Source: Nitrospirota bacterium (lineage in GTDB: Bacteria > Nitrospirota > UBA9217). From it: 64,000 bases of DNA. The position numbers were made by a program, and so were the translations under genes. A model generated the notes under the pieces. It searched no databases. It was given only the letters and a program-made list of their open reading frames with translations, and had not been told where the DNA came from. The stretch covers positions 20,385 through 84,384 of the forward strand of contig JBJKRX010000018.1 in the NCBI GenBank assembly GCA_046704425.1. Direction: 5' to 3'. Positions 44,766-48,625 of this stretch are shown piece by piece; positions within the stretch are counted from its first letter, which is position 1, and the number at the start of each line of letters is the position of its first letter.

Positions 44766-45179
44766 CTAAAAGAACAATACGTGTTGGACCGACTCCATCT
44801 CTTTTTGAATATCGGCGAAGGAGACGAAGGTGGTCTTGATCTCCGCCCCCAGTTCCTCCGCATCGGTGATCATCTGGTCTTCCTTGAGGCCGAGGCGCTC
44901 CATATCCTCTTTGCAGACCCACACCGGCATGTCGATCAGGAGGCTGTTCTTGATGTGGCTTTCCGTGCTGGTGACGCCGTACATTTTCATCGCTTGCTGG
45001 TTCTTTACCGCGTTCAGCACGCCGTCCCCGACGAACACGACGGTCGGCACCACGGAATCGCCGTCATCCATGTAGATCTCAGCGGTCTGGCTGGCGATGG
45101 CATGGGTGAGCGCCAACCGGGGGTTCTCGCTCTTGTACGGCGGCCTCTGCACGAGAAACAACAATCTGACTGCTCCCAT
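44766..45179 (-). CDS. DsrE/TusD-like sulfurtransferase family protein
   Basis: The 137-aa product contains VVFVGDGVLNAV and a conserved Cys in PVWVCKEDMERLGL, analogous to TusD Cys78. Confidence 0.55.
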   Translation of the reverse strand: MGAVRLLFLVQRPPYKSENPRLALTHAIASQTAEIYMDDGDSVVPTVVFVGDGVLNAVKNQQAMKMYGVTSTESHIKNSLLIDMPVWVCKEDMERLGLKEDQMITDAEELGAEIKTTFVSFADIQKEMESVQHVLFF

Positions 45180-45539
45180 TTACTCACCTCCTATGTGCAG
45201 CAGGCGGTCGGTCTTGACCGTCTTTGCCAGGTACCAGTCCATACTGGCCCGCTTCATACCCTCCGGAGTGTCCTCCTTATGGTAGCCGCGGGCCTCGGCG
45301 CAGGCCTCGCAGACCGTGAGTTCCATGCCCTTGCCGATCAGTTCCATCATTTTCTTTTCACAGTGCGAATAGTCCTTGAACGTTTTCTGCCCCTTCTTGG
45401 CCATCATTACCGCATTACCGGAGAGCCACATATTCACCTTGTGCCCCTTGGCCATCGCGGCCTCGGCAAGCTTGAACGAAAAATCAAGCGACATCGAGCC
45501 GACCAGCGAGGAGAAAACCCCCATCGTCAATTCAGCCAT
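45180..45539 (-). CDS. DsrE/DsrF (TusC-like) family protein
   Basis: The 119-aa product contains MELTVCEACAEARGY. It abuts the preceding gene with no gap. Confidence 0.5.
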   Translation of the reverse strand: MAELTMGVFSSLVGSMSLDFSFKLAEAAMAKGHKVNMWLSGNAVMMAKKGQKTFKDYSHCEKKMMELIGKGMELTVCEACAEARGYHKEDTPEGMKRASMDWYLAKTVKTDRLLHIGGE

Positions 45540-45654
45540 GCTGTCCTCCTTTAAGAATCTGCGAAGATGCGGGGAGATGCGCCCGGATCGTCCGCTTGGG
45601 CACTCATGCCGGAGCGCCGCCCATCCGCAGCCGTTGTTCGCCGCGAGCGATGCG

Positions 45655-45954
45655 CTACAGCCAGGCGCTCTTCTCGTAGTCGTTCATGATGAGGTCGACG
45701 ATATCGCCGTACCCCACAACCTTTACCTTCGGATTCACGCTCGCGGCGGTAAGACCGCGCGTCTCGAGGTCGTCCAACAGTGCATAGAAGGTCGCCCCGG
45801 CCTTTCCCAGCACGGGCGAATCCTTCCCGTCTTCCTTGACGACAGCATGGTAGACGCCGTTTTCTACCAGAACGATCCCCAGTTTTTCTGCGCTGATCCG
45901 CTCGAGGGTTTCTTCCGTCCTTCGCCAATCGCTTATAAAGAGAGCCAACTTCAT
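45655..45954 (-). CDS. DsrH/TusB-like protein
   Basis: The 99-aa product is MKLALFISDWRR...GIVLVENGVYHAVV, which has TusB-like layout. Confidence 0.5.
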   Translation of the reverse strand: MKLALFISDWRRTEETLERISAEKLGIVLVENGVYHAVVKEDGKDSPVLGKAGATFYALLDDLETRGLTAASVNPKVKVVGYGDIVDLIMNDYEKSAWL

Positions 45955-45982
45955 CGATTCACCTCCCCTGTGCAGCAGTGGG

Positions 45983-46022
45983 ATAAAAAAACAGGGGATA
46001 ATGTGTTCTTCCTATTATCCCC
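45983..46022 (-). terminator. Rho-independent terminator after dsrC
   Basis: On the minus strand the hairpin is GGGGATAAT-aggaagaacac-ATTATCCCC, followed by TGTTTTTTTA. Confidence 0.6.
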
Positions 46023-46177
46023 TTCGTTGTTGATCGAAGCTTCGCCGGTGTATTAGGAGCGACATGCCGCAACGCCCGTTCACTGCGCGCACCCCGTCCG
46101 ATAACCGGAGGGATTACACCGGCAGCGCCGTGCCCCTGCCCGCGGCAACGCCGAACGGCTGAAAGCCGGTCTCGCGC

Positions 46178-46513
46178 CTACACGCAGCCGGTCGGCTTCG
46201 GCAGACCGGCGATCTTGCAGGCCTGTTTCGCCGGGCCGCCCGGGTACAGCTCGTACAGGTACTTCGTGTTGCCCTTTTCCGGTCCGAGCTTTTTGCCGAT
46301 CTCTTTCACCAGGATCTTGATCATCGGCGCGATCTGGTACTGTGCATAGTAATCGCGCAGGAAATTCACCACTTCCCAGTGCTGGTCGCTCATCTGGATG
46401 CCCTCGACCTCTGCGAAGTAATTTGCTACATCCATGCTCCAATCGTCGAGGTTTGCCAAGAACCCATCCTCATCCACTTCCAGCGTCTTGCCTTTTACCG
46501 AAATCGTTCCCAT
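46178..46513 (-). CDS. dsrC: DsrC (TusE/DsrC family) with conserved C-terminal CxxxxxxxxxxCV arm
   Basis: The product ends ...YPGGPAKQACKIAGLPKPTGCV*. The start was set at MGTISVKGKTLEVDEDGFL. Confidence 0.85.
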   Translation of the reverse strand: MGTISVKGKTLEVDEDGFLANLDDWSMDVANYFAEVEGIQMSDQHWEVVNFLRDYYAQYQIAPMIKILVKEIGKKLGPEKGNTKYLYELYPGGPAKQACKIAGLPKPTGCV

Positions 46514-46612
46514 TGCTGATCCCCTTTCTATCGTTGACAATATGGTCGGGCGCCTTTCTTCGGCAATCCCTCGCTTCGTTCCTTCTGCCTGTTGCGTCGG
46601 CGGTCCGGTCCG

Positions 46613-46978
46613 CTACGCTGCCTGCTGTTTCACCCGCACTATGTACAACCGCCCAAATCCGTCCCGGAACCCTTTGCTGATACCCGGTGAGCGGTGAGTC
46701 CGCCAATCATAGCTCAAGATCGCATCTTCGTAATCGTCGCCGGGCATAAGGTCCGACGGGCTCTTCCGCAGTCGTTCCGCGGCGATGCCCAGCGCCTGCA
46801 CCATCGCCTCGCCGGCATTCTTCCCGGTCTGATCGACGATGTAGATCGCCCCGCACCCTTTGCAGAAACCACCGAGCACCCGCTCGGCGTCACCTGCGTC
46901 TATGGATTCCGGCCGGTCGAGCGCCGCACCGCAGAACGGGCAGGTCGGGTCGATGCTTCCTCGCGGTCGGGATCGCAT
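46613..46978 (-). CDS. Hypothetical Zn-ribbon protein (121 aa) between dsrN and dsrC
   Basis: The product has CPFCG...CKGCG motifs. Its start is 7 nt after the dsrN stop, which suggests translational coupling. Its composition is non-artefactual (IYIVDQTGKNAGEAMVQALGIAAERL). Confidence 0.4.
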   Translation of the reverse strand: MRSRPRGSIDPTCPFCGAALDRPESIDAGDAERVLGGFCKGCGAIYIVDQTGKNAGEAMVQALGIAAERLRKSPSDLMPGDDYEDAILSYDWRTHRSPGISKGFRDGFGRLYIVRVKQQAA

Positions 46979-46985
46979 ATGCTGG

Positions 46986-48389
46986 TCACCTCGTTCTCTT
47001 CGCGTCCCGTACGCCTGCTTGCCGTTCTCTGGCCATCCGCACCATGGCAGGAGCCCATTGCGGCGTCGCCAGTGCGTGAATATGGGTGTACGCCGCTACA
47101 ACGTTGCGGGTGACGAGTCCGTCGCGTTTGCCGTCGATCCCCGAACCCCGCCGCACATCATACGCCATCATCGGGTGTCCGTCAACCCGATCAAGCCGCG
47201 AGTAATGAAACTCGTGCCCCCGAACCTCGGTCCCCGCATCCAGGAATCTTCCGGACGTCCCGGCCTCGAGCACCGCATAGCCGTGCGCCTGGGGCCTGCT
47301 TTCCAGGATAAAATCCGCCGGAAACACGCCGGTCATGGCATAGCTCCTACCGCTGACCGTGAGGCTGCGTCCGAGATAGAGCAGACCGCCGCATTCCGCG
47401 TAGATCGGCAGCCCGTCGTCCGCCGCTTCCCTGACCGATCGGCAGAAATCGCCGTTTGCCGCGAGTTCCGCGGCCTGGGTTTCCGGAAACCCGCCGCCGA
47501 TATACAGCGCCTCGAGATCCGCCGGAAGCGCCCGATCCTGCAGGGCATTGATCTCGCGAAGGATTGCACCATGCCGTTCGAGCGCTTCCAGGTTATCGGG
47601 ATAGTAGAACTGAAACGCCTTGTCCCGGACAACCCCGACGGTGACGGTCGGACCGCCCAGGCGGGAACGTGGCGCCCCGTCCCGCTCCGTCGCAAACGTC
47701 TCTGCCGTTCCGGCCGCGCTCCAAAGCGCGTCGAGATCGCAATGCCGCTCCACCAGCGCCCGCGCCGCGTCGATGGCACCGATTGCTTCGGGATGCTCAT
47801 GGAACGGCGTGAGCCCCATATGCCGTTCCGGAAAACCGCCCCGCTGGCGGGGGATCGCACCGAGCACCGGCAGGCCGCTGCTTTTCGCTACCGCCTTCCG
47901 GATGACGTCCTCGTGGCGCGCCGAGGCAAGGTTGTTCAGTATGACGCCGACGATCCTGCAGGACGGATCGTACCGCAGACAGCCGAGCACCACGGCCGCC
48001 ACGGTGCTGGTCGCCTTGGTGCAGTCGACGATCAGCGCCGTCGGGGTCCTGAGCAGGGCTGCCAGCCGGGCCGTACTGTACGTGCCGGATTCGTCGACGC
48101 CGTCGTAGAGCCCCCGGTTCCCTTCGATAACAGCCGCATCCGCATCGGCCGCGTGAAGCAGAAAGGAATCAACGATCCGTTCCTCCGCCATCATGAACGG
48201 ATCGAGATTGTAGCAGGGCCGGTCCGCTGCGACGCCGAGCCATCCGGCATCAATGAAGTCCGGCCCCTTCTTGAACACTGCAACGCTGCGTCCCTGCCGC
48301 CGCCAGGCGGCGACGATGCCGAGGGCGATGGTTGTTTTCCCGATCCCCCCCCGCGTCGCCGCGATGACGAGCCTCGGCAAATCCCGCAT
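46986..48389 (-). CDS. dsrN: DsrN, cobyrinic acid a,c-diamide synthase homologue (sirohaem amidase)
   Basis: The product has a CbiA/CobB N-terminal P-loop (IAATRGGIGKTTIALG) and a C-terminal glutamine amidotransferase-like domain. It sits immediately after dsrD. Confidence 0.75.
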   Translation of the reverse strand: MRDLPRLVIAATRGGIGKTTIALGIVAAWRRQGRSVAVFKKGPDFIDAGWLGVAADRPCYNLDPFMMAEERIVDSFLLHAADADAAVIEGNRGLYDGVDESGTYSTARLAALLRTPTALIVDCTKATSTVAAVVLGCLRYDPSCRIVGVILNNLASARHEDVIRKAVAKSSGLPVLGAIPRQRGGFPERHMGLTPFHEHPEAIGAIDAARALVERHCDLDALWSAAGTAETFATERDGAPRSRLGGPTVTVGVVRDKAFQFYYPDNLEALERHGAILREINALQDRALPADLEALYIGGGFPETQAAELAANGDFCRSVREAADDGLPIYAECGGLLYLGRSLTVSGRSYAMTGVFPADFILESRPQAHGYAVLEAGTSGRFLDAGTEVRGHEFHYSRLDRVDGHPMMAYDVRRGSGIDGKRDGLVTRNVVAAYTHIHALATPQWAPAMVRMARERQAGVRDAKRTR

Positions 48390-48625
48390 TACGACTGCGG
48401 ATTGGCAGAGCCTTCCACATGGGGAATTTCGATGAAGCTGCCGCCGAAGTACGAATAGACCAGCTTGCCGCCGTCAACCAGTTCGCGCAGCGCTTCTTTG
48501 AACTCCGCTTCGGTCGCGCCTTCCGCGACCATGGCCTTCTTCAGGTCGCCGGACTTCATCTTCTTCTTGCCCATGTTCTTTTCTACGAGGTCATAGATCT
48601 TTTTCTGCAATTCCTGGGCGTCCAT
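48389..48625 (-). CDS. dsrD: DsrD, small winged-helix protein of reductive-type dsr operons
   Basis: The 78-aa product is MDAQELQKKIYDLVEKNMGKKKMKSGDLKKAM...GKLVYSYFGGSFIEIP. It lies immediately downstream of dsrB. Confidence 0.75.
   Translation of the reverse strand: MDAQELQKKIYDLVEKNMGKKKMKSGDLKKAMVAEGATEAEFKEALRELVDGGKLVYSYFGGSFIEIPHVEGSANPQS

Follow-up and report, generated by a model that had tools for sequence, protein, structure and literature searches.

Sulfate reduction worldwide, sulfur disproportionation and some sulfur oxidation run through the Dsr pathway, whose list of components (DsrABCDEFHLMKJOPNRST) is commonly regarded as almost complete. DsrC stands at its centre and is the least understood of its proteins; it has to be delivered to, and recovered from, DsrAB and DsrK. 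Here we describe a small gene, termed X, that encodes a 121-aa protein with four cysteines and lies between dsrN and dsrC in a 64,000-nt stretch of a Nitrospirota genome (contig JBJKRX010000018.1), referred to below as the window. X is the domain-only, dsrC-linked form of a kind of protein that is catalogued but uncharacterised, and it may credibly be proposed as a new Dsr accessory protein. The favoured reading, to which a probability of about 0.4 is assigned, is that X would be a metal-stabilised accessory adaptor or chaperone acting on DsrC.

Comparison with described systems

The closest described proteins are those of the DVU0298 family (NF045662), which come from sulfate reducers and syntrophs and are annotated as ‘HEAT repeat’ or ‘PBS lyase’ proteins. 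X is homologous over its full length to their N-terminal ~120 residues, with the same four cysteines, the same D49, G56, DY and YD..H residues, and the same order of predicted secondary-structure elements, and their genes likewise lie in dsr loci. X differs in lacking the ~210-residue HEAT/ARM domain, and in being co-directional with, and directly upstream of, dsrC, whereas the fused genes lie 2–4 kb from dsrAB on the other strand. Membership of NF045662 itself was rejected, as the defining HEAT domain was tested for and is absent, and X gives no match to the model.

A second comparison is with DsrD, a small dsr-encoded accessory protein that acts as an allosteric activator of DsrAB (PMC8794893). 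Both are small proteins from the dsr operon of reductive-type organisms that long went unnamed, and DsrD acts through protein–protein contact with a core Dsr component, which for X is proposed. DsrD, however, has a winged-helix fold and no metal site, and there is no kinship of sequence or fold, X giving no match to PF08679. TusA and DsrEFH are also small proteins genomically tied to dsrC, and in two loci an X homologue follows YeeE/YedE; X nevertheless has no homology to TusA, DsrE, DsrF or DsrH, and no free catalytic cysteine. Generic zinc-ribbon and rubredoxin-like domains (Lar, LysW and the ChsH2 zinc finger) resemble X in having two cysteine knuckles about 22 residues apart on predicted beta-hairpins.

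In Pfam and NCBIfam, X reaches no cut-off, and its sub-threshold knuckle matches are to Lar, the ChsH2 zinc finger and DUF4762. Lar was rejected on scores of 20.1 bits against a cut-off of 39.6 (TIGR03655) and 14.2 against 28.6 (PF14354), both over the knuckle region only. Rubredoxin was rejected as no such family model was among the matches and the second knuckle is CxC in many orthologues. The models for DsrC, DsrD, DsrE/F/H and DsrT (PF04358, PF08679, PF02635, PF04077 and PF14361) are matched by neighbouring genes but not by X, and no match in these scans places X with DsrR, DsrS or TusA. The original prediction, made from the DNA letters alone, could not assign the protein to any named Dsr component, and this stands: no family cut-off is reached and the PDB holds no relative.

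A conserved gene between dsrN and dsrC

X occupies 46613..46978 on the minus strand (ATG start, TAG stop; MRSRPRGSIDPTCPFCGAALDRPESIDAGDAERVLGGFCKGCGAIYIVDQTGKNAGEAMVQALGIAAERLRKSPSDLMPGDDYEDAILSYDWRTHRSPGISKGFRDGFGRLYIVRVKQQAA). Its 5′ neighbour is dsrN (46986..48389, minus strand), a sirohaem amidase homologue of the CobB/CbiA type (NF002204, 430.9 bits; Pfam GATase_3 and CbiA), and its 3′ neighbour is dsrC (46178..46513, minus strand; TIGR03342, 163.8 bits), which encodes 111 aa with both cysteines of the C-terminal arm present. The dsrN stop codon (TGA, 46988–46986) and the X start codon (ATG, 46978–46976) are separated by 7 nt, and 99 nt lie between the X stop (TAG, 46615–46613) and the dsrC start (ATG, 46513–46511). 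The prediction of a 121-aa frame with CPFCG and CKGCG motifs, 7 nt after a dsrN stop and about 100 nt upstream of dsrC, thus agrees with the coordinates, and the identity of both neighbours was borne out by the family matches.

At 63% G+C, the window is rich in long chance open reading frames (ORFs) on all strands, so that ORF length alone proves nothing and independent evidence is needed. Four such lines, namely homologues with conserved synteny, substitution rates, codon composition and a conserved start position, establish that X is a genuine coding gene on which purifying selection acts. Among 5.8 billion proteins, 19 homologues (48–74% identity) were found in addition to the window’s own entry, and a scan of one genome per species found an X relative encoded in 27 genomes. 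By their source labels, 26 of these are Nitrospirota, Nitrospirae, Nitrospiria or Nitrospiraceae and one is a metagenome-assembled genome (MAG) labelled Betaproteobacteria; none is labelled Desulfobacterota. As far as the contigs extend, the gene order dsrB-dsrD-dsrN-X-dsrC...dsrH is the same in 33 of 33 related loci. Ratios of non-synonymous to synonymous substitution (dN/dS, Nei–Gojobori) range from 0.056 to 0.356, and are mostly 0.1–0.2, among the 25 least-diverged of the 48 pairs with dS between 0.05 and 1.5. The G+C content at third codon positions (GC3) is 0.75 for X, 0.76 for dsrN and 0.78 for dsrC, and the two alternative ORFs that overlap X have no third-position GC excess.

Lack of conservation in related dsr loci, or poor codon adaptation, had been named in advance as grounds for dismissing the gene; the synteny, the purifying selection and the coding-like GC3 all speak the other way. 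The suggestion that conservation between dsrN and dsrC be sought in Desulfobacterota fared less evenly: the arrangement is kept in all 33 loci, but Desulfobacterota proved to be the wrong lineage for the stand-alone gene; the domain is there fused to HEAT repeats.

The start of the gene deserves care, because 13 of the 19 database homologues have been cut by gene callers at an internal methionine, which deprives them of the first metal knuckle. All 34 stop-to-stop frames encode a Cys-x-x-Cys knuckle, almost always CPFC, and every X locus has an ATG, GTG or TTG 10–13 codons ahead of the first cysteine. With start codons of the related loci inferred from position in this way, the 34 loci would use TTG in 22 cases, GTG in 5 and ATG in 7, TTG and GTG together making up 27. 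Gene models corrected accordingly are 118–129 aa long. Fifteen loci have a 4-nt overlap between this start and the dsrN stop, and one has a 1-nt overlap; elsewhere the start follows that stop, by 7 nt in the window, 13–15 nt in 13 loci and 43 nt in one. Three loci, fragmentary or frameshifted, could not be scored. In the window, the sequence GAGGTGA (46986..46992, minus strand), a near-perfect and strong Shine–Dalgarno sequence, overlaps the dsrN stop codon (46986–46988) and lies 7 nt before the X start. As the starts overlap or closely follow the dsrN stop from locus to locus, translational coupling of X to dsrN, which had been proposed for the window, appears to be a conserved trait of the clade. 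Together with the conserved position in the dsr locus, this tight coupling argues, as had been supposed from position alone, for a dedicated role.

A four-cysteine domain shared with DVU0298-family proteins

When a profile of the X clade was compared with 1.84 billion representative proteins, 84 matches were obtained, seven of which (P0033, P0048, P0049, P0054, P0072, P0073 and P0086) were rejected as giant low-complexity or repeat artefacts. The remainder form two groups: stand-alone proteins of about 115–145 aa, and 18 proteins of 272–583 aa in which the match is confined to the N-terminal ~120 residues. All seven of the longer proteins that were scanned match NF045662 (‘DVU0298 family protein’) over their C-terminal ~200 residues at 125–175 bits, the cut-off being 75 bits and the 213-position model describing the HEAT-repeat part only, and five of the seven also have Pfam HEAT-repeat matches. 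The four-cysteine N-terminal domain is covered by no Pfam or NCBIfam model in the scans of X and of the fused proteins.

A 43-sequence alignment of this shared domain has C13, C16, C39, C42, D49, G56 and Y90 invariant, with P14, F15, P23, G37, G43, A44, D82, Y83 and H95 at least 90% conserved. X is therefore a stand-alone homologue of the N-terminal domain of the DVU0298-family HEAT proteins. The fused form is widespread, a search with full-length fused proteins returning 379 clusters at E up to 1e-10, from sources that include Syntrophaceae, Syntrophobacteria, Desulfatiglandaceae, Desulfovibrionales, Thermodesulfobacteriota and Peptococcaceae. A DVU0298-type HEAT domain is encoded neither in the window nor within 8 kb in the related Nitrospirota loci.

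Genomic company of distant homologues

Five distant stand-alone homologues, 30–38% identical to X, were checked for their neighbours, and in four of them (32–38% identical) dsrC lies directly downstream. In Candidatus Magnetobacterium casense (P0111), the order is YeeE/YedE halves, the X-like gene, dsrC, dsrM and dsrK; in a MAG (P0112), a methyltransferase gene on the opposite strand precedes the X-like gene, which is followed by dsrC, dsrM and dsrK; in one metagenome contig (P0105), the X-like gene stands between an adenosine-kinase-like gene and a 54-aa ORF, with dsrC, dsrT and dsrM beyond; and in another (P0108), it follows the YeeE/YedE halves and precedes dsrC. None of the four has dsrN beside the X-like gene, and the upstream neighbours differ. 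Because the distant homologues keep dsrC without dsrN while other neighbours vary, dsrC is the only constant neighbour.

The fused gene also keeps dsr company. On a Thermodesulfobacteriota MAG, a Desulfatiglandaceae contig and a Peptococcaceae contig it lies within 1–4 kb of dsrABD, with dsrN nearby in all three, and on the Peptococcaceae contig a ferredoxin-dsrMK-dsrC-dsrN operon is close by as well. A metagenome scan added 80 fused-type loci, all from a single subfamily whose identity to the query is 56% or more. Where the downstream flank was at least 4.4 kb, dsrAB was found 1.7–4.4 kb from the fused gene, on the opposite strand, in 29 of 30 loci, usually followed by dsrN and dsrC; these 29 loci are mutually related and do not count as 29 independent observations. 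There is thus a four-cysteine domain family with links to dsr loci across Nitrospirota, Desulfobacterota and Firmicutes, and its stand-alone members lie directly upstream of dsrC and are tied specifically to it.

This distribution bears on the choice among the roles that the original prediction had listed for X, which were cofactor handling, DsrC maturation and regulation. A role related to DsrC gains the most support, as the distant homologues keep dsrC where dsrN is absent. A role alongside DsrN, in which X would help to mature the sirohaem-amide cofactor or DsrAB, docking on DsrN or apo-DsrAB and aiding hand-over of the tetrapyrrole, finds support in the coupling of X to dsrN and in the similar rate of divergence. 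By analogy with HEAT-repeat bilin lyases, the HEAT domain of the fused relatives might then hold the cofactor or client. The four dsrC-linked distant homologues without dsrN nearby tell against it, however, as does the absence of a HEAT domain from X and its surroundings, and dozens of unrelated solenoids match at least as well as CpcE/F does. Such a maturation role is considered unlikely.

Protein anatomy and the four cysteines

The first metal knuckle, Cys13-Pro-Phe-Cys16 (CPFCG), is encoded at 46931..46942 and the second, Cys39-Lys-Gly-Cys42 (CKGCG), at 46853..46864, both on the minus strand; their four cysteines are those found invariant in the 43-sequence alignment, and they are the only cysteines of X. 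All four are retained in every full-length X frame, and 28 of 29 X proteins have exactly four. The spacing of the second knuckle varies, being CxxC in the window and some orthologues and CxC in many. In the clade alignment, the most conserved block is residues 82–112, DYEDAILSYDWRTHRSPG...DGFGRLY (46643..46735, minus strand). Invariant residues of the X clade are D49, T51, K53, G56, L63, D82, Y83 and L88–H95 (LSYDWRTH), followed by S97, G99, D106, G109, R110 and Y112. The proteins are near neutral, with a median isoelectric point (pI) of 6.7 and a net charge of about 0.

An AlphaFold2 model built on a 20-sequence alignment has a mean predicted local distance difference test score (pLDDT) of 75.2 and a predicted template modelling score (pTM) of 0.68. 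It places strands at 24–27, 33–38 and 45–49, a helix at 55–70, and further strands at 83–91 and 108–116, and predicts a single compact domain, with the knuckle hairpins forming part of a sheet that packs against the helix. No solved structure resembling the model was found by structure comparison with the PDB, and a PDB sequence search with the superfamily profile gave only insignificant C2H2 and ribosomal zinc-finger matches (E ≥ 0.014). The invariant CPFC and Cx(1-2)C motifs, with modelled strands around them, amount to two CxxC-type knuckles on beta-hairpins, so that the description as a zinc-ribbon-like protein was well chosen. Most likely, the four cysteines bind a structural Zn that stabilises the protein.

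The original prediction had also raised a possible redox-active cysteine pair able to interact with the DsrC arm. This part is not upheld, as almost every orthologue has just the four knuckle cysteines and none to spare; any thiol contact with the DsrC arm would therefore have to use the metal ligands themselves. A related alternative casts X as a redox or sulfur-handling protein, with a rubredoxin-like Fe site or a Zn–thiolate switch that exchanges with the arm cysteines. DsrC does work via two redox-active cysteines, and the knuckles CPFCG and CxxCG resemble those of rubredoxin. The two loci in which an X homologue follows a YeeE/YedE-type sulfur transporter also lend it some colour, since a TusA/YeeD-type carrier is often encoded at that position (PMC13293266). 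Yet X matches no rubredoxin, TusA or DsrE family, the CxxC/CxC variation of the second knuckle is more typical of a structural Zn site, and there is no fifth conserved cysteine to carry a persulfide, all of which leave a redox or sulfur-handling role very improbable.

The X–dsrC spacer and expression signals

The 99-nt spacer between X and dsrC (46514..46612, minus strand) holds the ribosome-binding site (RBS) of dsrC and an imperfect GC-rich hairpin. The RBS, GAAAGGGGA (46520–46528, minus strand), is invariant, being found 6–9 nt before the dsrC ATG in 29 of 29 non-redundant loci. In single-sequence folds of most related loci (L001–L032), a GC-rich hairpin lies about 20–35 nt upstream of this site and is followed by an A/U-rich stretch; its stems differ by locus (for example GGAUGCC/GGCGUCC, GGGCCGCCGG/CCGGUGGCCC and GACGCG/CGCGUC), and the hairpin is weaker in the window (about 46548–46570, minus strand). 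RNAalifold, applied to a MAFFT alignment of the X–dsrC spacers, did not recover it, and scans of the region found no promoter or terminator consensus and no Rfam family. The hairpin could act as a partial terminator or attenuator after X, or as a 5′ stabiliser of the dsrC mRNA.

In a further alternative, X would regulate dsrC by binding DNA or the mRNA leader upstream of it, for instance the hairpin, and so tune the level of DsrC relative to DsrAB. In the related loci and in the dsrC-linked distant ones, X immediately precedes dsrC and shares its strand, and in most related loci the hairpin sits at an equivalent position, with differing stems, beside the invariant RBS. Zinc ribbons, moreover, frequently bind nucleic acids. 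Set against this, X is near neutral, unlike typical small nucleic-acid binders, and matches no DNA- or RNA-binding family; the failure of RNAalifold to recover the hairpin also counts against it, and a cis-acting regulator is hard to reconcile with a domain that in its fused form sits on a protein-binding HEAT solenoid and is encoded far from dsrC, on the opposite strand. Regulation of dsrC by X is accordingly judged quite unlikely.

The same region speaks to expression levels. With X starting mostly at TTG or GTG, and dsrC having an invariant RBS and an ATG, the signals point to low expression of X beside highly expressed dsrC. A weak start next to such strong signals fits a sub-stoichiometric helper adjacent to an abundant substrate protein.

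A possible adaptor for DsrC

From this evidence we infer metal binding, DsrC binding and an adaptor role for X. That X would be a protein-binding module acting on DsrC is suggested by dsrC being its sole constant neighbour and by the fusion partner of its relatives being a protein-binding solenoid, as well as by its neutrality, its lack of a spare cysteine and expression signals that fit a helper; the near-neutral pI and the absence of extra cysteines argue against a general nucleic-acid binder or a persulfide carrier. In the proposed mechanism, X would be a small metal-stabilised protein whose two cysteine knuckles lie within a beta-sheet-plus-helix domain, and it would be made sparingly from the end of the dsrABDN transcript, its start being weak in most orthologues and its translation tied to that of dsrN. 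Its target would be DsrC, either alone or complexed with DsrAB, DsrK or DsrEFH, and X would help to load, protect or hand over DsrC during the sulfite-reduction or sulfur-transfer cycle. In the sulfate reducers of the Desulfobacterota and Firmicutes, fusion of the domain to a HEAT/ARM alpha-solenoid would supply a second docking surface, whereas the Nitrospirota X would be the docking domain alone.

Several points weigh against an adaptor for DsrC. Adjacency of X and dsrC can equally reflect co-regulation, and within the X clade the coupling is to dsrN rather than to dsrC. The fifth distant homologue (P0120, from a MAG) lies in an unrelated PilZ and sensor-kinase context, and the fused-type loci have dsrD, dsrB and dsrA as their closest dsr genes (2–4 kb), with dsrC 6–8 kb away. 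Alternatively, the conserved polar residues D49, D82, Y83, Y90 and H95 might make up an active site or a second metal site, and the model of X is of moderate confidence (pLDDT 75), with no informative structural neighbour. A broader proposition, that the four-cysteine domain is a widespread and previously unnamed DsrC-specific adaptor or chaperone, stand-alone in Nitrospirota and fused in Desulfobacterota and Firmicutes, which would be needed for DsrC to cycle efficiently between DsrAB and DsrMK (or DsrEFH), is more tentative still, and on present sequence evidence we regard it as doubtful.

A domain that accompanies dsrC and dsrAB in three phyla, and that lacks a curated family, is nevertheless a concrete candidate for a missing helper. 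Even as a regulator or maturation factor, X would enlarge the parts list of a well-studied operon.

In the literature, no paper was found on the X family in a dsr context, including among papers on Dsr synteny and evolution, and nothing was found for HEAT repeat or PBS lyase proteins with dsr genes, or for THEYE_A0002. The one use of ‘DVU0298’ that surfaced seems to be a typographical error for a CO dehydrogenase locus, and was set aside. The locus tags listed in the Candidatus Sulfobium paper skip one or two genes without names in the dsrN–dsrC interval, on which the authors do not comment (PMC5812927); such gaps are seen for Nbg-4, a groundwater MAG and Thermodesulfovibrio yellowstonii (dsrN A0001, dsrC A0003, with THEYE_A0002 as the unnamed gene between them; Table 2 of that paper). 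Possibly, these unnamed genes are X.

Other features of the dsr loci

In the window, dsrD, dsrB and dsrA lie 5′ of dsrN, dsrD being a separate gene (48389–48625) whose family match is weak and below the cut-off. On the 3′ side of dsrC are DsrH-, DsrE- and DsrF-like genes, dsrT (RsbRD_N) and ORFs at the position of dsrMKJOP; the names dsrA, dsrB and dsrMKJOP rest on position and on synteny with annotated homologous loci. The three DsrH-, DsrE- and DsrF-like genes (44766–45954, minus strand) all fall below the equivalog cut-offs for TusB, TusD and TusC, and probably represent the recently described ‘DsrEFH type II, subtype 1’, which is mostly found in Nitrospirota (PMC13293266). The locus thus combines dsrD, dsrT and dsrMKJOP with dsrEFH-like genes, and the pairing of dsrD with dsrEFH-like genes constitutes a mixed reductive and oxidative signature. 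In four of four related contigs inspected, a 2x[4Fe-4S] ferredoxin of 61 aa (106 aa in some loci) is encoded between dsrC and dsrH, whereas in the window the 222-nt dsrC–dsrH gap holds no ORF for it (45955–46177).

Among the loci of distant homologues, two from Magnetobacterium-type Nitrospirota have a split YeeE/YedE sulfur transporter directly upstream of the X-like gene and dsrC (L034, 2510–3705; L122, 2835–4024), and a TusA/YeeD gene was not called beside it in either. Between the DVU0298-family gene and dsrD, loci of Desulfobacterota and Peptococcaceae carry ORFs without family assignment (L038, 4886–5512, 6777–7382 and 7454–8674; L039, 8092–10467; L040, 8234–8863), which encode proteins of about 201–209 aa and about 390–406 aa, plus a 208-aa CxxCxxCC protein, and may be additional dsr-associated proteins. 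Finally, in another locus (L035, 4323–5750), a 475-aa protein encoded some 1.2 kb ahead of the X-like gene and dsrC joins a weak DsrC-like region to a class V aminotransferase domain of the cysteine desulfurase type.
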